From Syntrophales bacterium (GTDB lineage: Bacteria > Desulfobacterota > Syntrophia > Syntrophales > UBA2210): a stretch of DNA of 64,000 bases. Each line of letters starts with the position of its first letter. The first letter of the stretch is position 1. A program made the translations under genes and the position numbers. The stretch covers positions 640,001 through 704,000 of the forward strand of contig CAXXNF010000001.1 of the NCBI GenBank assembly GCA_963666365.2, read 5' to 3'. Below the pieces are notes generated by a model. That model worked only from the letters and a program-made list of their open reading frames with translations. It had not been told where the DNA came from and did not search any database. Shown in pieces: positions 1 through 39,453 of the stretch.

Positions 1-371
1 TGTTGCAGGCCGTCCTCGACGACGCCCACTTTCAAATGATCAGATTTTTCCTGCAGCCGCCCCGGATGGGAGAGAGTGAAATGAACGACATGCTGCGCCA
101 GATCAGGGATGTGGCGGCGACACCCCAGAAACTCTACATTCGCACCATTCGGAAGGTGCTGCGAAGCGGCCTTTTATCGCCAGCCTACCCATTTGAGGGC
201 GATGCCGACAGTGACGAGGTCTTCGCCCGCGCGCGCGTCCGGATGGAGGAATTGCTGAGGACGCCGGTAGAGCACATTAATGAAGAAATAACAGCACAAA
301 TTTTCAGGGAGATTCCCGGTCTGCTGCCGCGACTCAACCTGTATGGGAAGAAGGGGGATTACCATGAGTGA
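1..371 (+). CDS. C-terminal part of a trimethylamine:corrinoid methyltransferase (MttB superfamily)-like protein, 5' truncated by the window edge
   Basis: QAVLDDAHFQMIRFFL and DEVFARARVRMEELL resemble the MttB C-terminal pattern (EQLVID.EI..M.... and .AERAR.RVREIL). Its stop overlaps the start of a corrinoid protein gene. Confidence 0.6.
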   Translation, partial: LQAVLDDAHFQMIRFFLQPPRMGESEMNDMLRQIRDVAATPQKLYIRTIRKVLRSGLLSPAYPFEGDADSDEVFARARVRMEELLRTPVEHINEEITAQIFREIPGLLPRLNLYGKKGDYHE

Positions 372-1038
372 GGACATACTTGCCCTGTTGAAAGAAAATG
401 TCATTCAGGGAAGAATCACCGAAGAAGACGAGGGGATCGACGAGGAACTTTCCGGTCCTGGAGTGGTTGAGCTGACACAAAGTGCAATCGAACAGAAAAT
501 TCCTGTTCAGGATATCATTACACAAGGATTGACGGCGGGGATGGAAATAGTAGGAGCGCGGTTCAGTGCAAAAGAATATTTCGTACCGGACATGCTTGCT
601 TCGGCGGAAGCAGTCAGCGCCGCCATGGACCTCTTAAAGCCGCTCCTTGAAGAGTCGCAGATGGAACCCAAGGGTATCTTTGCCATCGCCACGGTCAAGG
701 GCGACATCCACGATATCGGCAAAAATATTGTGGCAACCCTCATCAAGGGGGCGGGCTACGAGGTGGTCGATCTGGGCATTGATGTACCCACCGAGAAAAT
801 TGTCGACTATGTCCGCGAAAATAAACCCGCTTTTCTCGGCCTCTCGGCCCTGCTCACCACCACGATGCTGGTCATGGGTGATGTGATCGAAGCACTGAAA
901 GCCGCCGGCATACGAGATATGGTTCGGGTGTTTGTGGGAGGCGCCGCCGTCTCGAAGGAATTCGCCGATGATATCGGCGCCGACGCCTATTGTGCCGACG
1001 GCTTCGAGGCAGTGAGAATTCTGGATTCAAGGGGATAG
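364..1038 (+). CDS. Methyltransferase-cognate corrinoid (B12-binding) protein
   Basis: Cobalamin-binding motif GDIHDIGKNIV, LGLSALLTTT, VGGAAV; N-terminal cap with EYFVPDML. ATG at 364 follows a purine-rich RBS. Confidence 0.92.
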   Translation: MSEDILALLKENVIQGRITEEDEGIDEELSGPGVVELTQSAIEQKIPVQDIITQGLTAGMEIVGARFSAKEYFVPDMLASAEAVSAAMDLLKPLLEESQMEPKGIFAIATVKGDIHDIGKNIVATLIKGAGYEVVDLGIDVPTEKIVDYVRENKPAFLGLSALLTTTMLVMGDVIEALKAAGIRDMVRVFVGGAAVSKEFADDIGADAYCADGFEAVRILDSRG

Positions 1039-1081
1039 GGAATATGGGTAACGGGTCACGCAAAAAAGGAGAGTGAAATCT

Positions 1082-2569
1082 ATGTCGGGAATCGCAGGAC
1101 TATATGGAGATGAACCATCAACGGTTGATCGCATGCTCGATACCATTGCTTATCGGGGACCTCAGGGCACATGGAGATTTGATGAAGGACTCGTGCATCT
1201 GGGAATCAGAGAACTGAATGTGGGAGGAATCGGCTCAGAGAACGCGCATTTCACTTCGGACGGAAAAAAAACGGTAGTGATCGACGGCCGGATATATAAC
1301 GCAGGTCTTGAGAATTTGAGCGATGCGGAAGCGATCCTTTCACTCTATGCTCGTTTCGGCGATCGTTTTGCCGAAAAAATTGACGGGGATTTCGCCTGCG
1401 CCCTGAGCGACAATGGTTCACTCATTCTGGCCCGTGATGAAGCAGGCATCAAGCCCCTCTACTACGGCCACGATGAAAAGGGCAATCTATGCTTTGCCTC
1501 CGAGGCGAAGGCATTGGTTGATATCGCATGCGATGTCCGGGAGTTCCCTCCGGGGTATACCTATTCCCGAGAAATAGGATTCCGTCGATCCGTAAACAGT
1601 GCCGTGGAAACACCGGGGTGCGAAACCTACGATCAGGCAAAAGGAGTGCTCAGGGACCTCCTCGAAAAGGCCGTGGAAAAGAGAATGCGCGACAAGGCGG
1701 TAACGGGGGTGCTGCTCAGCGGCGGACTAGACAGCAGTCTCATCGCCGCCATGGCCTGCCGGCATAGGCCGGATATCGACTGCTTCACTGTCAGTATGGA
1801 AGACGGAGTCGACCTTCCCCTCGCCCGTGATGTCACGGCCGCGCTGAAACTTCCCCATCATGTGCATATGTTCGGGAACAGCGATATAGGTGAAATTCTT
1901 CCGGCGGCAATTCACCACCAGGAGATGTATGAGGAAAGCTGCGTTCACGGCGCAATCGCAAATTTCCTGGCAGGACGGTTCATTAAGGGAAAATCAGCCT
2001 GTGTGCTTACAGGGGAAGGGGCAGACGAGTTTTTCGCCGGCTACGACGGGCAGTACAAGGCCGGATCGAATCCGGAAGAAGTTGCCGCTATCTGTGACAG
2101 TCTCATTATTGTGGCGCACAATACGGCACTCCAGCGTCTGGACAGATTGAACGCAGCAAACGGATACGAAAGCCGCACCCCCTTCCTCGACACGGCAGTC
2201 ATGCAATTCGCCCGGAAGATACCGCTGTCCTGGAAGATTCATGGAAAGGAACGCACCGGCAAGTGGATTCTTCGACAGGCCTTTGAGAATGTGCTGCCCG
2301 ATCATGTCATTTATCAGACCAAGCGGTTTTTCGCCCAGGGCTCCGGTGTGGCCTATGTCATGCGGCAGGAGGCGGAAAAGGTCGTTTCACCGGAAGAACT
2401 TGACGCATTCAACAGGGAACCGGGAAATCCGCTGCTCTCATCGGTAGAGGAACTGTATTATTACCGATTTTTCAAAAAAACCTTCCCCCACAACTCCTTC
2501 GATCGTCTCGTGGGACGCTGGGATCCCCTGCGACCGGGCTTTTTTCCACGATGGGAAAAGAGGAATTAG
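1082..2569 (+). CDS. Asparagine synthetase B-like ATP-dependent amide ligase with Cys1 replaced by Ser
   Basis: N-terminus MSGIAG (canonical MCGIAG), RGP, ARD..GIKPLYY, PP-loop LSGGLDSS, TGEGADE.FAGY, ESRTPFLD. AAGGAG RBS near 1066. Confidence 0.88.
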   Translation: MSGIAGLYGDEPSTVDRMLDTIAYRGPQGTWRFDEGLVHLGIRELNVGGIGSENAHFTSDGKKTVVIDGRIYNAGLENLSDAEAILSLYARFGDRFAEKIDGDFACALSDNGSLILARDEAGIKPLYYGHDEKGNLCFASEAKALVDIACDVREFPPGYTYSREIGFRRSVNSAVETPGCETYDQAKGVLRDLLEKAVEKRMRDKAVTGVLLSGGLDSSLIAAMACRHRPDIDCFTVSMEDGVDLPLARDVTAALKLPHHVHMFGNSDIGEILPAAIHHQEMYEESCVHGAIANFLAGRFIKGKSACVLTGEGADEFFAGYDGQYKAGSNPEEVAAICDSLIIVAHNTALQRLDRLNAANGYESRTPFLDTAVMQFARKIPLSWKIHGKERTGKWILRQAFENVLPDHVIYQTKRFFAQGSGVAYVMRQEAEKVVSPEELDAFNREPGNPLLSSVEELYYYRFFKKTFPHNSFDRLVGRWDPLRPGFFPRWEKRN

Positions 2570-2803
2570 GTAATGGATTATAGGTAATGGGGAATTTACT
2601 TTTTCTCGTACCTATAGCCTCTCGCCCATCACACACCGCCAATTTCTTGTTGCAGAATCGAGCAATTGCTGTTTAAATAGTTTTTTTAAGGGACGGCATT
2701 TGACCTTGGACCGTTGTCTGAATCGCATATATACCCGGGTCCTGTCTGAAATCACGTCTTTCCCATAAATTCGCAGTGACTGCGCCACAGTGGAGGAAAA
2801 TCA

Positions 2804-4879
2804 ATGAACCGTAGTGAACGTCTCCCATATGACACCATTAACACCATACGATTTCTCGCGGTCGATGCCATAGAGAAGGCTCAATCAGGACATCCGGGGC
2901 TTCCCATGGGGGGCGCCGCCACGGCATATGCCTTATGGACAGGGCATCTCAGGCACAACCCCGCCGATCCCCAATGGTTTAATCGCGATCGTTTCGTCCT
3001 TTCCGCGGGACACGGTTCAATGCTGCTCTACGCGCTCCTCTACCTTACAGGGTATGACATTACTCTTGACGATATAAAAAATTTCCGGACCTGGAGAAGC
3101 AAGACGCCGGGACACCCGGAATATAAAATCACTCCGGGGGCTGAAGTGACTACGGGACCTCTGGGCCAGGGAGTCGGCAATGCTGTAGGAATGGCTATCG
3201 CAGAGGCATACCTGTCTGCACGATATAATCGGCCGGGCTACCCTGTGGTGGACCATTGCACCTATGTCCTTGCCGGCGACGGCGACCTGATGGAGGGAGT
3301 GACTGCTGAGGCCTGTTCCCTGGCCGGCCACCTCCGCCTGGGCAAGCTTGTAATGCTCTATGACGACAACCACATTTCTTTGGCCGGCGCCACGGGGCTT
3401 TCCTTCACGGAGGATACAGGGAAACGGTTCGAGGCATATGGATGGCACGTGCACTACGTCGGCGACGGCAACGACATAGAGGCCATCGATCGAGCTATCC
3501 TGTCGGCAAAGGAAGAGACGACCCGTCCTTCCCTGATCGCGATTCGCAGCATCATCGGATACGGTTCTCCGAAAAAGCAGGGCTCCTCAAAGGCCCACGG
3601 TTCACCTCTGGGCGCCGAAGAAGCATCGGCTGCAAAAGAGCGCCTCGGCTGGCCCCAGGAACCGAAGTTCCGAGTTCCCGATGACGTGCATGCTTTCACC
3701 CGTGAAGCGCTTGAAAAAGGGGAAAAACTCCAGGCGCAATGGAATTCCCTTTACGAAGAATACCGCACAGACCATGGAGACTGCGCTGCAGAACTCGATA
3801 GAATCATAAAGGGAGAACTTCCTCCCCATTGGGAAAAGGCGTTGCCCTCTTTTACGGAAGCCGGGACGGCCGTCGCCACGAGAAAAGCATCGGAAGAGGT
3901 AATGCAGGCTCTTGGCCCACTGATGCCGGAACTGGTGGGAGGCACGGCGGACCTGAATCCCTCGACCCTTGCCTGGGTCAAGGGGGCCGGGGATTTTCAA
4001 GCTCCCGGAACCCTTCCACCGGAGGGAATCGAGGGATCTGTGGGCGGTCCATGGGGCTATGAGGGAAGAAATATTCACTACGGCGTGCGAGAGCATGCCA
4101 TGGGCGCCATAGCTGCGGGGTGCGCCCTTCATGGCGGCATCATCCCCTATACAGGAACGTTTCTTACCTTCTCCGATTACATGCGACCGTCGATTCGTCT
4201 GGCCGCCCTGATGGGAATAAGGATAGTCTATGTCTTTTCCCACGACAGTATCGGCGTTGGAGAAGACGGCCCAACTCACCAGCCGGTAGAACAGATTATG
4301 AGCCTCAGGTGTGTGCCCAATCTTACCGTCATTCGCCCTGCCGACGCCAATGAAACCGTAGAGGCCTGGAGGCAGGCACTGACTCGAAAAGAGGGTCCCA
4401 CAGCCCTTGTTCTTTCCCGACAGACGCTTCCGCTAATGGATAGAACTCGTTATGCGCCCGCGGAACACCTCTGCCGCGGCGGGTATATACTGTGGGAATC
4501 GTCAAAAGGGACCCTCCCGGAGGCGATTTTCATCGGTACCGGTTCCGAATGTGAGATCGCCCTTGCCGCAGGCGAAAGTCTTGCCGGGGAGGGCGTTGCC
4601 GTCCGCGTCGTCAGCCTTCCCAGCTGGGAGCTTTTTGACGCCCAGCAGGCAGAATACCGGGACGCGGTGCTCCCCCCGTCGGTATCGGTCCGCATAGCCG
4701 TCGAAGCGGGCATTGCCCTGGGATGGGAACACTACGTGGGCAGAGAAGGAAGGATAATCGGAATGGAAAGTTTCGGTGCAAGCGCGCCGGCCGGAATTCT
4801 CTATGACGCCTTCGGGATCACAGTGGAGACGGCTCTCCAGGCCGCCCGCGAGCTTCTTGAAAAGAAAGGCATTGTATGA
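2804..4879 (+). CDS. tkt: Transketolase
   Basis: [67 protein letters not shown]. Confidence 0.97.
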
Positions 4880-6579
4880 AAACAGCACTGCATATCTCCG
4901 GACTTGATAACTACCGGCAGATTATCAGCGAAACAGCCAGAAGACTGCAGGATGAAAATTTTGTAAGCAGAGTCAAGACCCGCGATCATTCCCTCTGGAA
5001 ACCTGCTCCCGACGAAATTGTTAATCGCCTCGGCTGGCTCGATGCCCCACACCTCATGAAGGATCGAATCGGCCAAATTCAGCAACTTGTCAATGACGCC
5101 CGAGATGAGCGATACACTCATGCAATTCTGCTGGGCATGGGCGGATCGAGTCTGGCTCCGGAAGTACTTAAAAACACGTTCGGATTCAAAGAAAGTTATC
5201 TCGATCTTTCAATCATCGACAGTACCGAACCGGCGGCAATTCTTCATCAAACAAGCAGGCTTAAAGTGGGACGCACGCTTGTGATTGTGTCTACCAAGTC
5301 GGGCTCCACCGTGGAAACGCTCTCCTTATTTAAATTTTTCTATAATGTGATGGGCGATGCCATCGGGCCGACAACAGTGGGTAGTCATTTTGTGGCCGTT
5401 ACCGATCCCGGATCGGGTCTGGCAGAACTGGCGAAACGATATAATTTCAGGGAAATTTTTTTTAACCCACCGGACATCGGGGGACGATACTCGGCACTTA
5501 CCTTTTTTGGCCTGGTCCCGGCGGCACTTACCGGCATCAATGTATCGTACCTCTTGATTCGCGCAGCTTCGGCTGCCCAAAGCTTCGAAGAAGCGGGCCC
5601 ATTGTCGAACGAAAAAAATCCCGGCGCTTTTCTGGGTATGCTTATGGGCGCTATGGCCCTGGTCGGCCGGGACAAGCTGACCTTTCTCATATCCCCTCAG
5701 GTAAAAAGTTTCGGCCCATGGCTGGAGCAGCTTATTGCAGAGAGTCTCGGGAAAGAAGGTACGGGCATTGTACCGATCGTCGATGAACCGCCCGCATCGC
5801 CTGTAAAATACGATGACGACCGCCTCTTCGTGTATCTCCGCCTCAAATGGGATTCCACCCTCGAAAAAACAGTTCAGGCGCTCAGGAAGGCGGGACATCC
5901 CATCATAACTGTGGAGATTGAGGACCTGTACGAACTGGGCTCACAGTTTTTCCTCTGGGAGGCGGCAACGGCCGTTGCCGGACATATTCTGGCCGTCAAT
6001 CCCTTCGACCAGCCTGATGTGGAAGCCACAAAGGCGATGACGAAGGTGATAATCGCTGAATATGGGGAAAGGGGGGCGCTCCCCGAAGAAAAATCTTCAC
6101 ATGCGGACCATCACATTACCCTCTACGGCGCCGTTGAGGCGGACGCTCCCCTCCAGGCCTTCACGAAATTTCTGGACAGGGCGGAACGGGGCGACTATAT
6201 AGCCCTTCAGGCTTATTTACAACCGAAGGACGATACCGACGCGGCGCTTGCCCTCCTGCGGAAGGCAATTCTGAACCGGTACAGGAGGGCCACCACGGTC
6301 GGCTACGGCCCTCGTTTCCTTCATTCAACGGGTCAGCTTCATAAAGGCGATGCAGGCAAAGGACTCTTCATCCAGATTACCTGCGATACAGTGCAGGACG
6401 TCCCCATCCCCGACGAGGCAGGGGAAATGCCTTCTACCCTCTCTTTCGGCATATTAACGTCGGCGGAGGCTCGGGGAGACAGAATGGCGCTCCTCAAAGC
6501 GGGGCGAAGGGTGCTGAGGGTTCATTTGGGGAAAGACGTTATGGGAGGGCTGAAATATCTGGCGGACGCCATAGCATGA
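4876..6579 (+). CDS. pgi: Glucose-6-phosphate isomerase (type resembling the PGI half of Tal/Pgi fusions)
   Basis: [70 protein letters not shown] overlap with tkt. Confidence 0.88.
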
Positions 6580-7196
6580 TGGAAGGGGCAACGATTTTTG
6601 ACAGAATTGTCATAGCTGTTCCTCGGGAAAAGATTTACCGTCGCCTGGGATATCGTCGCGGCATTACGGCATTGTCTGCAATGGAGCGCGCATCGGTCGA
6701 CGAGGCAATTGAGGATGCCTGCAGCCGGCTTCATCTCAGGGGAGCGGGAAAACGCCTTTCAATCAAAGCACAAACCCCCGAGCAAATTATCCTCTCTGAA
6801 GGAACGGCATTTCGCAGTACCGCACTGTCACGATTTATTGATGGCTGCCGGGAGATCATTCTGCTTGGCGCCACGGGGGGCACACAGATCATCGATGCGA
6901 TTCACGATGAAACCACACGGGACAATCTGAGTCGCGCCGTTGTGTATGATGCCACGGCAAGTGAGATGGTCGACGGCGCCCTTGAATGGATCATGCGCTA
7001 CTACAGGGGAATCCTGAGGCGGGAGGGCAGAGGACTTTTGAAGCGGCGCTTTTCTGCGGGGTACGGCGACTTCGCCCTGGAACATCAGAAAATAATATAC
7101 GATCTTTTGGGGTTTGACCGTATCGGAGTGAGCATCAGCAACAAGTCGATTCTCATACCTGAAAAATCGGTTACGGCGGTCACGGGAATAACATAA
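6576..7196 (+). CDS. Stand-alone B12-dependent methionine synthase activation-domain protein
   Basis: RFSAGYGDF and IPEKSVTAV motifs; lies directly upstream of a MetH that lacks this domain. Confidence 0.85.
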   Translation: MMEGATIFDRIVIAVPREKIYRRLGYRRGITALSAMERASVDEAIEDACSRLHLRGAGKRLSIKAQTPEQIILSEGTAFRSTALSRFIDGCREIILLGATGGTQIIDAIHDETTRDNLSRAVVYDATASEMVDGALEWIMRYYRGILRREGRGLLKRRFSAGYGDFALEHQKIIYDLLGFDRIGVSISNKSILIPEKSVTAVTGIT

Positions 7197-7219
7197 TTTT
7201 GGGACAAGGAGTATACACT

Positions 7220-9640
7220 TTGGCACAGAAGACCGGCATTCACAACATCCTAAGAAGGCGCATCGTTATTCTCGACGGTGCAACGGGCACGGAGCTTCAA
7301 AAAAGGGGGATGCCTGCCGGGGCATGTCCGGAACTATGGTGCATCGATCATCCGGAAGCGATATGTGCAATCCATAAAGACTATCGAAGGGCCGGCGCAG
7401 ACATTGTCTACAGCTGCACTTTCGGTGCAAACCGAATCAAGCTTGCACAATACGGCACCTCCGATGTGAAGGGAATCAACAGAGCGCTCGCTCTTTATGC
7501 ACGAAAAGCCCTCGGGAAGAAGGGATTTGTGGCAGGCGACATAGGTCCCACCGGGCGTTTTGTGGAACCCTTCGGCGATCTCGCCTTCGAAGAAGCGGTG
7601 GCTGTTTTCAAGGAGCAGATCACAGGCCTTCTCGAAGGCGGCGTTGACATGCTCGTCATCGAAACGATGATAGATATTCAGGAGGCACGCGCCGCGCTTA
7701 TCGCAGCACGTGAACTCAGCGATTGTTTTGTGATGACCACTATGACCTTTGAAGAAAACGGCCGAACCCTGAACGGAACCGATCCGATATCGGCCCTCGC
7801 TACCCTGCAGAGTCTCGGCGCCGATGCCGTAGGATGCAATTGTTCCACAGGCCCGGCCGAGATGAGAGCACTTATTGCCGCAATGAAGCCCTTTGCCACA
7901 GTTCCACTGGTGGCAAAACCGAACGCCGGCATGCCTGAATTACAAGCAAACGAAACGATATTCACTATGACTCCGGAGGAATTCGGCAACTACGGGAAGG
8001 AATTCGCCGCCCTCGGCGTGGACTTGATGGGAGGCTGCTGCGGCACCACACCGGATCACATCCGCACTCTCAAAGAATCGCTTGCCGGAGAAAGGGGGAT
8101 TCCACCCCGTCTCAATGCCCTCGGCGCCGTCAGCTCTTGCAGGCGCACGGTCTTGATCGACAGGGAAGGAACGCTCAAGATCATAGGCGAGCAAATCAAT
8201 CCCACGGGCAAAAAAGATCTCCAGGAAGCATTGCGCAACAAACAAACCGGGCCTGTCGGCGCCATGGGCAGGCAGCAGGAAAAGAAAGGGGCCGATCTCC
8301 TCGATGTCAATGTGGGCGCACCCGACGTCGATCAGCGGGCAATGATGAGGGAGGCGGTTAAAACGCTTTCCCTCACAACAACGGCGCCCCTTGTGATCGA
8401 CTCCGCCGATCCCGACGCCATCGAAGCGGGACTTCGGATCTATCCGGGCAGGGCCCTCATCAATTCGATTTCCGGTGAAACGGCGAAGCTGGAAAAGTTG
8501 CTCCCCCTGGCGGCCCGCTACGGCGCCATGTTCATACTGCTTCCACTTACGGAAAAAGGTGTACCGGAAACGGCAGATGCCAGAAAAGCGGTCATACAGG
8601 AGGTGTACAGAAAGGCGCAGGCCTTTGGATTTCGCAAACCGGATATTGTGGTTGACGGACTTGTAATGACGGTTTCGGCGGACCCGCAGGCACCGCGCGA
8701 GACATTGAAAACAATCGAGTGGGCGCACCGTTCTTTCCGGTGCGCCACGCTATTGGGACTTTCCAATGTCTCCTTCGGGATGCCCGCCCGTCCCTGGCTC
8801 AACGCCGCCTTTCTCGGAATGGCAGCCTCACGGGGACTGACCATGGCAATTGCCAACCCTGAAGTGGAAGAAATCATGCATGTTAAGGCGGCCTGCGATC
8901 TTCTGAACGACAAAGATCGTGATGGAGCGAGCTATCTGGCGCATTTTTCTACCGGCACCCCGGGAAAAAAGACCGGTCCGGAAAATAACGCTCCCCTGAC
9001 TCCGGGTGAGAAAATCGTCCATGCCGTCATCGAGGGAAATCGTGACGAAATCGAAAGCGCCCTGGCAGCAGCGCTCAAGACGGGCGAGGCCCCGCAGGAT
9101 CTGGTCAATACCTACATGATCCGTGCAATCACGGAGGTAGGAAACCGTTATGACCGGAAAGAGTATTTCCTTCCCCAGTTGATTGCAGGGGCAGAGACGA
9201 TGAAACGGGGCATAACCTATCTGGAACCGCTTCTCAGAGAAAACCGGCAGGAATCAGCACAGAGAGGGACGATCATTATGGCCACGGTCGAAGGCGATAT
9301 TCATGATATCGGGAAAAATATCGTGGTCCTCCTGCTGAAAAACCAGGGATACGACATCATAGATCTGGGAAAAGATGCACCCGCCGAGCTAATCATCGAA
9401 GAAGCAAAGCGATCGAAGGCAGCGCTCGTCGGACTTTCCGCTCTCATGACCACCACGATGGTGACGATGGAAACAACCATCGTCCTGGCGCGTCAACAAA
9501 AGCTTGCCTGCGACTTCATGGTGGGCGGCGCCGTCGTCACCCCGTCCTACGCCTCTTCCATAGGCGCTCACTATGCGAAAGACGGCGTTGATGCCGTACG
9601 TCTCGCGGAACGCCTCATCGCAAAGAGGCTTTCGAAATAA
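7220..9640 (+). CDS. metH: B12-dependent methionine synthase (homocysteine, pterin and cobalamin domains; no activation domain)
   Basis: LDGATGTELQ, GCNCSTGP, GGCCGTTP (Zn ligands), IIGEQINPTG, GLSNVSFG, GDIHDIGKNIV. TTG start at 7220 after AAGGAG. Confidence 0.92.
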   Translation: MAQKTGIHNILRRRIVILDGATGTELQKRGMPAGACPELWCIDHPEAICAIHKDYRRAGADIVYSCTFGANRIKLAQYGTSDVKGINRALALYARKALGKKGFVAGDIGPTGRFVEPFGDLAFEEAVAVFKEQITGLLEGGVDMLVIETMIDIQEARAALIAARELSDCFVMTTMTFEENGRTLNGTDPISALATLQSLGADAVGCNCSTGPAEMRALIAAMKPFATVPLVAKPNAGMPELQANETIFTMTPEEFGNYGKEFAALGVDLMGGCCGTTPDHIRTLKESLAGERGIPPRLNALGAVSSCRRTVLIDREGTLKIIGEQINPTGKKDLQEALRNKQTGPVGAMGRQQEKKGADLLDVNVGAPDVDQRAMMREAVKTLSLTTTAPLVIDSADPDAIEAGLRIYPGRALINSISGETAKLEKLLPLAARYGAMFILLPLTEKGVPETADARKAVIQEVYRKAQAFGFRKPDIVVDGLVMTVSADPQAPRETLKTIEWAHRSFRCATLLGLSNVSFGMPARPWLNAAFLGMAASRGLTMAIANPEVEEIMHVKAACDLLNDKDRDGASYLAHFSTGTPGKKTGPENNAPLTPGEKIVHAVIEGNRDEIESALAAALKTGEAPQDLVNTYMIRAITEVGNRYDRKEYFLPQLIAGAETMKRGITYLEPLLRENRQESAQRGTIIMATVEGDIHDIGKNIVVLLLKNQGYDIIDLGKDAPAELIIEEAKRSKAALVGLSALMTTTMVTMETTIVLARQQKLACDFMVGGAVVTPSYASSIGAHYAKDGVDAVRLAERLIAKRLSK

Positions 9641-38019: not shown

Positions 38020-39453
38020 TCATGACGATGACAATCGCCGGGTCAGCAATTCCCGGATCACTTTCGGATTGGCTTTTCCGCCGGAGGTCTGCATGATCTG
38101 ACCGATCAAAAAACCCAGGGCTTTTCCCTGGCCGCTTTTGTAATCGGCCACCGCCGCCGCCTGCGCCGCAAACACCTGATCAATCAGCGATTCGAGCGCG
38201 CCCGCGTCGGACACCTGACCCAGGCCTTTGACTTTCACAATGTCCCGGGGAGCATCACCGGAATCAAACATGCACGACAGCACATCGCGGGCCGCGTTGG
38301 CGTTGATCTCGTCTTTTGCCAGCATTTCCAGAAGTGCGGCCAGTCTTTCCGGCGTCACGGGCGTATGGGAAAGATCCTGGCGACGTTCACGCAGGGCGGG
38401 CAAAAGCTGGGTGGTCAGCCAGTGCATGGCTGCTCTGATCTGGGCGCCCGCGCGAATCAATTCTTCAAAATAGACGGCCGTTTCCGGATCAGTGCTCAGA
38501 TAGGTCGCCTCGTCGGTTGAAAGGCCATACTGGTTGACAAACCGTTCAGCGCGCACTGCGGGCATTTCCGGCAGACGGGCGCGCAGTACCGCAATTTCTT
38601 CGGGTGAAAGCTCAATGACCGGCACAGAGGGATCGGGAACACAGGGGCCCTCAAACTTCTGCCGCATGGGCAGCGTGACTTTCTTATCCGGATCCCACAA
38701 CCGGGTGTGCAGCACCACGGATTCGCCGGCCCGCACGGCCGCGCTCTGACGGCTGATTTCGTAAGAAATTGCATCCCCCACGTGTCGGACGGAATTCATA
38801 TTCTTCACTTCCACCTTGGTGTTCATACGGCCGTCGCCTTTGGGACGGATGGAGATGTTCGCATCGGCGCGCATCGTGCCGTTTTCCATACTGCATTCCG
38901 ATGATCCCACATAGCGCACCTGCGTACGCAGGGCCTTGAGAAACTCCATTGCATGGTGGGGCGTCCGGAAATCCGGCTCGGTGACGATTTCCACGAGCGG
39001 TGCACCGGCACGATTGAAATCCACCAGACTGATCGGCGTTCGTCCTTCCATTTCATGCACCAGTTTGGCGACGTCCTCCTCCATATGAATATGATGGATG
39101 CGCATCCTTTTGGGCGAGCCGTCTTCATCGGCAATGTCAACCCAGCCACCGCGGGCCAGCGGCAGATGCACCTGTGAAAGCTGATATCCCTTGGGCAGGT
39201 CCGGATAGTAGTAAACCTTTTGATCAAAGGCGCTTTTCGGCTGAAGTTCGGCATTGAGGCCCAGGCATAAAAGCGCCGCCTTTTCGAGCGCGGCCCCGCT
39301 CAAACGAGGCGCGGCGCCGGGATGCCACAGACAGACCGGACAGGTGTTAATGTTCGGGTCATCGCCGGGATTATTGGGACAATCGCAAAAGAGCTTTGTG
39401 GCACAGTTGAGTTCGACATGAATTTCCAATCCAATAACCGCTTCAAATTCCAT
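38020..39453 (-). CDS. gatB: Asp-tRNA(Asn)/Glu-tRNA(Gln) amidotransferase subunit B, divergent
   Basis: VIGLEIHVEL, YYYPDLPKGYQ, HMEED, DFNRAGAPLVEIVTEPD, EVKNMNS, C-terminal YqeY-like GFLIGQIM..SGGKANP. Confidence 0.95.
   Translation of the reverse strand: MEFEAVIGLEIHVELNCATKLFCDCPNNPGDDPNINTCPVCLWHPGAAPRLSGAALEKAALLCLGLNAELQPKSAFDQKVYYYPDLPKGYQLSQVHLPLARGGWVDIADEDGSPKRMRIHHIHMEEDVAKLVHEMEGRTPISLVDFNRAGAPLVEIVTEPDFRTPHHAMEFLKALRTQVRYVGSSECSMENGTMRADANISIRPKGDGRMNTKVEVKNMNSVRHVGDAISYEISRQSAAVRAGESVVLHTRLWDPDKKVTLPMRQKFEGPCVPDPSVPVIELSPEEIAVLRARLPEMPAVRAERFVNQYGLSTDEATYLSTDPETAVYFEELIRAGAQIRAAMHWLTTQLLPALRERRQDLSHTPVTPERLAALLEMLAKDEINANAARDVLSCMFDSGDAPRDIVKVKGLGQVSDAGALESLIDQVFAAQAAAVADYKSGQGKALGFLIGQIMQTSGGKANPKVIRELLTRRLSSS

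Follow-up and report, generated by a model that had tools for sequence, protein, structure and literature searches.

The window analyzed here is a 64,000-nucleotide stretch of the genome of a Syntrophales bacterium (G000:C1:640001-704000; the genome, G000, is 94% complete). It opens with three genes, which encode the end of an MttB-family methyltransferase (MttB_B), a corrinoid protein (CorrP), and a protein resembling asparagine synthetase B (AsnB), here called AsnBl. The AsnBl gene was found to travel with a methyltransferase cassette across phyla. We propose, with moderate confidence, that AsnBl is a catalytically competent, glutamine-independent enzyme of the AsnB type and that its gene is dedicated to, and closes, a cassette for pyrrolysine-independent methyl transfer.

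The AsnB-family genes that follow CorrP in related cassettes, in what we call the slot, were sorted into three types. Type I genes are Cys-less, as in the window. Type II genes are also Cys-less and have MASIAG... and DGELFN. Type III genes are canonical Cys1 AsnB genes, with MCGIAGCFG... and NGEIYN. Residues are numbered after E. coli AsnB, with Cys as residue 1. AsnBl has the motifs MSGIAG (at its start), DGRIYN, SGGLDS, GEGADE, and RTPFLD; at the aligned positions, E. coli AsnB has CSIFG..., NGEIYN, SGGLDS, GEGSDE, and ARVPFLD. Cys1 is Ser in the window's AsnBl and, among 74 type I genes, it is Ala in 71, Ser in two, and Pro in one. The original prediction, which was made from the letters of the window, had pointed out the MSGIAG start, the DGRIYN motif, and the missing glutaminase nucleophile. 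The two motifs were both seen in the translation, and the loss of the nucleophile proved to be family-wide.

The changes in the glutaminase domain go beyond the nucleophile. Arg49, Asn74, Glu76, and Asp98 are glutamine-binding or oxyanion residues (PMC6748925). The changes R49E, S51N, and N74D occur in 100% of type I and type II sequences, and type I also has E76R; D98 is retained. Across the Cys-less sequences, R49 is replaced by E, A, S, Y, or T, and N74D is found in every Cys-less sequence of the clade. At two positions of the ammonia tunnel, AsnBl has Asn for M329 and Leu for A388. Virtually every Cys-less sequence differs from AsnB at both, with M329N throughout the clade and A388 replaced by L, V, or M. 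The two positions correspond to the tunnel-lining residues Met-344 and Ala-404 of the human enzyme (PMC11615228). With replacements at the nucleophile, Arg49, and Asn74 and changes at two tunnel residues, AsnBl is predicted to be glutaminase-dead, with an N domain unable to hydrolyze glutamine.

The synthetase side is retained, including SGGLDS, E348, D351, E352, Y357, R387, K429, and K449. The PP-loop, E348, D351, E352, K429, and K449 were invariant in 26 Cys-less sequences, with the one exception of E348K in a second copy (L106b). D351, E348, and R387 are modeled contacts of the alpha-amino and alpha-carboxylate groups of aspartate (PMC6748925; PMC11615228). With its PP-loop and acyl-adenylate residues kept, the adenylating half of AsnBl looks catalytically intact.

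The fold is that of AsnB. In a phmmer search, AsnBl matched E. coli AsnB (1ct9) at 7e-48, human ASNS at 2e-35, beta-lactam synthetase (beta-LS) at 8.8e-18, and CarA at 1.7e-14. Its NCBIfam scores were below the cut-offs (NF006949, 329.1 vs 499; TIGR01536, 249.3 vs 267.1). An AF2 (AlphaFold2) model built from 37 sequences had a predicted local distance difference test score (pLDDT) of 90 and a predicted template modeling score (pTM) of 0.90, and it showed a two-domain N-terminal nucleophile (Ntn) and PP-loop fold. Template modeling (TM) scores of this model were 0.84-0.86 to 1ct9, 0.85 to human ASNS, and 0.72-0.76 to beta-LS. The ESM Atlas returned only generic AsnB clusters. In a search for fused or longer forms, the only find was an unrelated 901-aa fusion of AsnB to an S-adenosylmethionine (SAM) methyltransferase with 37% identity, which was uninformative.

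The linkage of AsnBl to the cassette was seen in both search directions; the original prediction had asked whether AsnB homologs of the MSGIAG type co-occur with MttB and corrinoid genes. A protein search with AsnBl gave 4622 matches at E <= 1e-20. The best 120 of these had 65-91% identity and a length of about 495 aa, came from Syntrophales/Thermodesulfobacteriota and Chloroflexota/Dehalococcoidia, and were annotated only as 'asparagine synthase-related'; DGR[VIL]YN was present in 108 of them, and nearly all began with M-A/S/P-G-I. On genome contigs, the AsnBl query found 54 family loci (63-80% identity) and six outgroup loci (31%). MttB_B and CorrP lay directly upstream on the same strand at 42 of the 54 family loci. 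Further up at these 42 were MttB_A, which is a second MttB-family paralog, an activation-like gene, and usually a pterin methyltransferase gene, sometimes with a second corrinoid gene in place of the latter. Among the other 12, seven contigs began at AsnBl or within about 300 nt of it, and four were cut within or just before the corrinoid gene. L045 (L045:10001-11221) was the one family locus where a long upstream stretch was present but did not contain the cassette; its match begins at residue 87, and this AsnB-like gene is probably a truncated remnant.

In the other direction, the MttB_B query found 80 loci on metagenome contigs, of which 17 were too short and 63 had at least 1200 nt past MttB_B. 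The order MttB_B, CorrP, AsnB-family gene was found at all 63. The slot held type I only at 29 loci, types I and III at one, type I and a second Cys-less copy at one, a type II-like Cys-less gene only at 19, types II and III at two, and a canonical type III gene only at 11. The type III gene of L084 is a true AsnB, with an NF006949 score of 593.7 bits, above the cut-off of 499.

We also sampled 151 genomes from the order to which the window's organism belongs, among which kin are not independent. Both AsnBl and MttB_B were present in 13 genomes, AsnBl only in one, MttB_B only in two, and neither in 135. In the genome with AsnBl only (G064), the gene is at the start of a contig; the two with MttB_B only were G032, which has a type III gene, and G130, in which MttB_B is partial. 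The distribution of the pair was patchy and covered five families of the order. AsnBl is kept alongside the cassette at 63-91% identity across Chloroflexota and Desulfobacterota. In G076, which belongs to the same family as the window's organism, the MttB_B ortholog is in two pieces about 1.35 kb apart, at G076:C1:2111751-2112920 (residues 128-517) and 2114272-2114691 (residues 1-139), and this may reflect an insertion in the gene.

A wider survey of 401 genomes of the phylum yielded 12 further matches that were picked at 33-40% identity. Eleven of these loci have a Cys-less gene, and L164 has a canonical gene only. MttB-family cassettes were present at eight of the 11 distant Cys-less loci, whose members have 31-40% identity (L153, L156-L159, and L161-L163 are the eight), often with an OpuA-type ATP-binding cassette (ABC) transporter, a DAO-type oxidoreductase, a metallo-beta-lactamase (MBL)-fold hydrolase, or CN_hydrolase. 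At L160, the Cys-less gene directly follows an OpuA-type transporter. In a quick LG+G4 tree, which gave long-branch warnings and included the 26 Cys-less sequences, canonical cassette AsnB sequences, and E. coli AsnB, all 26 Cys-less sequences formed one clade (Shimodaira-Hasegawa-like approximate likelihood ratio test, SH-aLRT, 96) apart from the cassette-embedded canonical clade and E. coli AsnB. The Syntrophales AsnBl of the window was nested among Dehalococcoidia sequences, a placement in favor of the whole operon having been transferred together.

The methyltransferases of the cassette are of the pyrrolysine (Pyl)-independent kind. Positions 1-371 had been assigned to the MttB family and, although the 122-aa fragment alone had no Pfam or NCBIfam match, the full open reading frame (ORF) of MttB_B places it in the MttB superfamily (PF06253 MTTB, 199.6 bits; cut-off, 25). 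Its closest solved relative is M. barkeri MttB (7xcl, 1.7e-42). A check of the gene for an in-frame TAG had been called for; the 517-aa ORF has no internal stop and no in-frame TAG, the pyrrolysine position of 7xcl aligns with Val351, and no PylD or PylS scored above cut-off in G000. Residue 352, which follows Val351, is Cys here and in 114 of 123 MttB_B orthologs and Ser in the other nine. Against TIGR02369, the model for the Pyl-type trimethylamine MttB, MttB_B scored 276.8, under the cut-off of 525. MttB_A is a conventional non-Pyl MttB paralog of 500 aa (PF06253, 385.8 bits). A scan for riboswitches and other RNA elements before and within the cassette gave a single match, Rfam PYLIS_3, inside MttB_A at L003:12405-12504 (L003 is the locus with 15 kb upstream of the window start), which is 2.5 kb before the window (61.4 bits; gathering score, 38). 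This match begins exactly at the codon where Pyl-type mttB has UAG and MttB_A has ATG (Met341), and it was rejected as a pyrrolysine signal because an ATG at that codon points to coding-sequence homology.

Neither paralog has the glycine betaine site of MtgB. The binding residues of MtgB include R312 and H348, two basic residues that bind the carboxylate (PMC13080624). At the MtgB positions Y97, R312, H348, and F356, MttB_B has S, Y, C, and N and MttB_A has G, Y, D, and A/C. R312 is thus Tyr in both paralogs and H348 is Asp or Cys, so both basic carboxylate-binding residues are gone.

The genes are listed in Table 1. All three had been described as linked and co-directional, and the ORF list places them on the + strand.

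Table 1. Positions of the three genes in the window and of the full MttB_B gene
Feature	Position	Strand	Description
MttB_B 3' end (last 122 codons)	1..371 (coding 3-371)	+	full ORF 517 aa, start 1183 nt before window
MttB_B full ORF	G000:C1:638818-640371 = L003:13818-15371	+	517 aa, uninterrupted
CorrP	343..1038	+	231 aa from ATG 343; second ATG 364; PF02310, PF02607
AsnBl	1082..2569	+	495 aa, ATG; alternative GTG 1073 (498 aa); PF00733 198.1 bits

The start of the CorrP ORF overlaps the MttB_B stop. CorrP has B12-binding cap and Rossmann domains (PF02607, 61.9 bits; PF02310, 92.6 bits), and its DxHxxG motif reads DIHDIG. Its best NCBIfam matches were the MtgC-type family and TIGR02370, both under cut-off (TIGR02370, 194.7 vs 215.3). 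The gap from the CorrP stop to the AsnBl start is 43 nt here, and the median at 75 related loci is about 48 nt. The ATG of AsnBl is preceded by the Shine-Dalgarno sequence AAGGAG, and the resulting MSGIAG... agrees with the N-termini of the family. Including the upstream DNA, the cassette reads, all on the + strand, a 232-aa protein with a weak match to the MetH activation domain, MetF, MttB_A, a pterin methyltransferase, MttB_B, CorrP, and AsnBl. The pterin enzyme is a 270-aa methyl-tetrahydrofolate (methyl-THF):corrinoid methyltransferase (NF005719, 278 bits, above cut-off). A transketolase gene follows AsnBl after a 234-nt gap. Promoter and terminator scans of window positions 1-3000 gave no excess over shuffled expectation, and no terminator-like site was found on the + strand past AsnBl.

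Further into the window, an 813-aa MetH at 7199-9640 (+) was seen to be without an activation domain. A 206-aa ORF directly before it, at 6576-7196 (+), had no Pfam match and cross-matched the 232-aa MetH-activation-like protein of the cassette at 23-35% identity at many loci. The pair resembles a MetH divided in two, with reactivation on a subunit of its own, which would be paralogous to the first gene of the cassette.

The search for RNA sequencing runs of the window's organism found none. One marine-sediment metatranscriptome contained short contigs 97-99% identical to window positions 731-878 (CorrP) and 1452-1692 (AsnBl). None of these contigs spans two genes and DNA carry-over is possible; they are a weak hint that a close relative is transcribed in situ.

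The genome encodes other AsnB proteins. G000 has two canonical Cys1 AsnB paralogs of 648 and 649 aa. It has no asparaginyl-tRNA synthetase (AsnRS) above cut-off (best score, 92.6 vs 342.6 bits), and two gatB copies scored above cut-off, at window positions 38032-39453 (-) and at G000:C2:2041243-2042664. This suggests that Asn-tRNA is probably made by transamidation. With two other AsnB proteins, no AsnRS above cut-off, and two GatB proteins, housekeeping asparagine for translation is not the obvious role of AsnBl. An additional AsnB-related ORF of 315 aa at L067:1471-2418 (G000:C1, around 1.4736 Mb) consists of just the Asn_synthase PP-loop domain followed by a Cys-rich tail at the C terminus, and the N-terminal domain is missing.

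In the reaction that we propose, AsnBl would adenylate aspartate, or a close analog with an amino/ammonium group. It would then make a carboxamide using a free nitrogen nucleophile, which may be ammonia or else a small amine that arises in, or is processed by, the demethylation pathway, and this nucleophile would get to the synthetase site directly. Direct entry of free ammonia has been proposed for ASNS (PMC11615228). Amide formation by AsnBl within the cassette would mean that the pathway has an ATP-driven amide-forming step. It is tentatively possible that ammonia is the nucleophile and asparagine the product, and we hold equally tentatively that the amide itself may be an intermediate of the pathway. 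Ordinary amidation of aspartate is favored by the cassettes with canonical AsnB alone (11/63), by the lack of a Cys-less copy in G032, and by the retained modeled contacts of aspartate. A specialized reaction is favored by the changes at Arg324 and elsewhere in the pocket, the lack of a translational need for free asparagine, the strict tie to MttB_B, and the amidohydrolases found in some cassettes. The suggestion in the original prediction that AsnBl scavenges the amine released by demethylation is, for amine or ammonia, compatible with these results.

Several observations weigh against the proposal. The original prediction held that all synthetase motifs are kept. This was correct for SGGLDS, GEGADE, and R.PFLD, but not for TTIR, whose Arg324 is conserved in canonical AsnB. 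AsnBl and 98% of type I have His at this position, and 94% of type II have Ser. In the human enzyme, the corresponding substitution R340H appears in a table of disease variants (PMC6053511). Together, the disease listing and the replacement of Arg324 suggest that the activation of aspartate may be impaired or altered. In addition, a canonical Cys1 AsnB was the sole occupant of the slot at 11 of the 63 metagenome loci, and G032, which is 99% complete, has no Cys-less copy at E <= 1e-30. These cases suggest either that the Cys-less enzyme is dispensable to some cassettes or that the linkage is partly historical. L154 and L155, which belong to one lineage, lack an MttB gene up to a distance of about 9 kb from the Cys-less gene. 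Finally, short gaps are the only indication that the cassette is co-transcribed.

The replacement of Arg324 is part of a wider set of conserved changes in the acyl pocket of types I and II (R324H/S, T322C, Y359G/M, and E372I/L), and the early-branching Cys-less sequences L161b, L162b, and L163 still have Arg324. In E. coli AsnB, Arg-325, Thr-322, and Thr-323 reportedly take part in the formation of beta-aspartyl-AMP, according to mutagenesis work of the 1990s. One idea considered was that the loss of Arg324 marks a substrate without the alpha-carboxylate of aspartate. This was found to be weak, as the contact sits on Arg-403 (E. coli R387) in PMC11615228, and this residue is retained.

Another possible explanation, which we consider somewhat doubtful, is that methyl transfer passes through an obligatory amide made at the expense of ATP in a pyrrolysine-independent corrinoid pathway. 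In the form that follows the N-methylamide route of the original prediction, AsnBl would make N4-methyl-asparagine from aspartate and methylamine, and this product would act as a carrier; in a variant, AsnBl would amidate the carboxylate of an imported betaine. MttB_B would demethylate this beta-aspartyl carrier or betaine amide, and an amidase or other amidohydrolase would restore the acid and close the cycle. The specific tie of AsnBl to MttB_B-type genes and the conserved acyl-pocket changes listed above would fit such a route. So would the absence from MttB_A and MttB_B of the two basic residues that bind the carboxylate of glycine betaine in MtgB. The isochorismatase-family gene in 12 of 134 loci and CN_hydrolase in three of 134 and at L163 could supply the amidase, although the window's own cassette holds neither an amidase nor a transporter. 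OpuA-type betaine transporters were found beside distant cassettes. The loss of glutaminase activity would keep out competing ammonia. The slots held by canonical AsnB alone and the early-branching Cys-less lineages with Arg324 and Tyr359 argue against the route. On general chemical reasoning, a methyl group is also harder to transfer from the nitrogen of an amide than from that of a protonated amine, and the amide reaction would be unfavorable without acid activation. Each cycle would cost two ATP equivalents.

It is unlikely that AsnBl is an ordinary ammonia-dependent asparagine synthetase for nitrogen assimilation, with a linkage that is a relic of tandem asnB duplication spread by horizontal transfer. 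In the tree, the Cys-less clade is nearest to the cassette-embedded canonical type III AsnB, and tandems of a Cys-less and a type III gene occur at eight loci, four of the 54 genome loci and four of the 63 metagenome loci (among them L012, L015, L020, L057, L074, L132, and L142), and also at L156, L161, and L162. The C1A variant of E. coli AsnB is said to retain ammonia-dependent activity, which counts for this explanation, as does the position of glnA and amt next to the cassette in one lineage. Against it, the gene stays with the cassette at 63-91% identity in both Chloroflexota and Desulfobacterota, and the 135 of 151 relatives in the order that lack AsnBl also lack MttB_B. The replacement of Arg324 and a genome with two other AsnB paralogs and no AsnRS above cut-off also speak against it. 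The lineage with glnA and amt is of type II. At L082, L084, L085, L088, L091, L092, and L111, glnA, amt, and a response regulator gene lie on the opposite strand just 3' of the cassette, with nadE and a YbjQ-like gene on the upstream side. Such a nitrogen-metabolism neighborhood is found in one lineage only.

It is very unlikely that AsnBl is a pseudoenzyme that has kept the AsnB fold and serves the methyltransferase system as a scaffold, sensor, or regulator, since the invariance of the PP-loop, E348, D351, E352, K429, and K449 (apart from the E348K copy) would be unexpected without catalysis, despite the dead glutaminase site and the replacement of Arg324, which is said to be essential to beta-aspartyl-AMP formation in E. 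coli AsnB.

Comparison with known systems places the proposed glutamine-independent enzyme close to AsnB and apart from it at defined positions. AsnB (1CT9) and human ASNS (6GQ3) share its fold and AsnB is its best sequence relative. Unlike AsnB, AsnBl has Ser at Cys1, Glu at R49, Asp at N74, Arg at E76, Asn at M329, Leu at A388, and His at R324, and its gene is fixed in MttB operons. The simplest functional analogs are the C1A and C1S variants of E. coli AsnB (the 1CT9 crystal form), in which the nucleophile is also missing and which reportedly keep ammonia-dependent synthetase activity. These laboratory variants still bind glutamine; in AsnBl, the glutamine-binding residues are replaced as well, and a natural clade shares these changes as fixed features. 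Beta-LS (1JGT) and carbapenam synthetase (1Q15) are natural Cys-less AsnB homologs that use a nitrogen nucleophile other than glutamine. They are far more distant from AsnBl (TM 0.71-0.76) and carry out intramolecular ring closure in antibiotic clusters; the neighborhood of AsnBl is an MttB cassette, with no antibiotic-cluster context.

The cassette shares an MttB-family methyltransferase, a corrinoid protein, and a pterin-binding methyltransferase with MtgB/MtgC/MtgA of D. hafniense and other non-Pyl MttB systems. It differs from the MtgB system in having two MttB paralogs, both without the betaine residues of MtgB, and in its MetH-activation-like protein, MetF, and AsnB-family gene. To our knowledge, these last three are not part of described MtgB-type systems. 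Gamma-glutamylmethylamide synthetase of the N-methylglutamate pathway also captures an amine as a side-chain amide at the expense of ATP, and its likeness to AsnBl would be functional only. That enzyme has the glutamine synthetase fold and works in an aerobic pathway without corrinoid, whereas AsnBl is a PP-loop/Ntn protein. A full-text literature search found no paper that ties AsnB-type genes to MttB or corrinoid systems; the single co-mention came from a lake metagenome survey. This suggests that the Cys-less AsnB of MttB operons is undescribed in the literature searched.

Non-pyrrolysine MttB enzymes demethylate quaternary amines, and the steps that follow in anaerobes without pyrrolysine, as well as the substrates of many MttB paralogs, are questions of the field. 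A glutaminase-dead AsnB, or in a minority of cases a canonical AsnB, that is always found behind one divergent type of MttB points to an ATP-dependent, amide-forming reaction in such a pathway. The arrangement appears to have passed between sediment Chloroflexota and Desulfobacterota by transfer, and it names three small soluble proteins for direct tests: MttB_B, its corrinoid protein, and AsnBl. If AsnBl simply captures ammonia, the use of methylated amines would be linked to nitrogen assimilation. If the amide is an intermediate, corrinoid methyl transfer would have a new kind of activation chemistry and, in the case of an amide carrier, the pathway would be an anaerobic, B12-dependent counterpart to the use of gamma-glutamyl carriers in the aerobic breakdown of amines.

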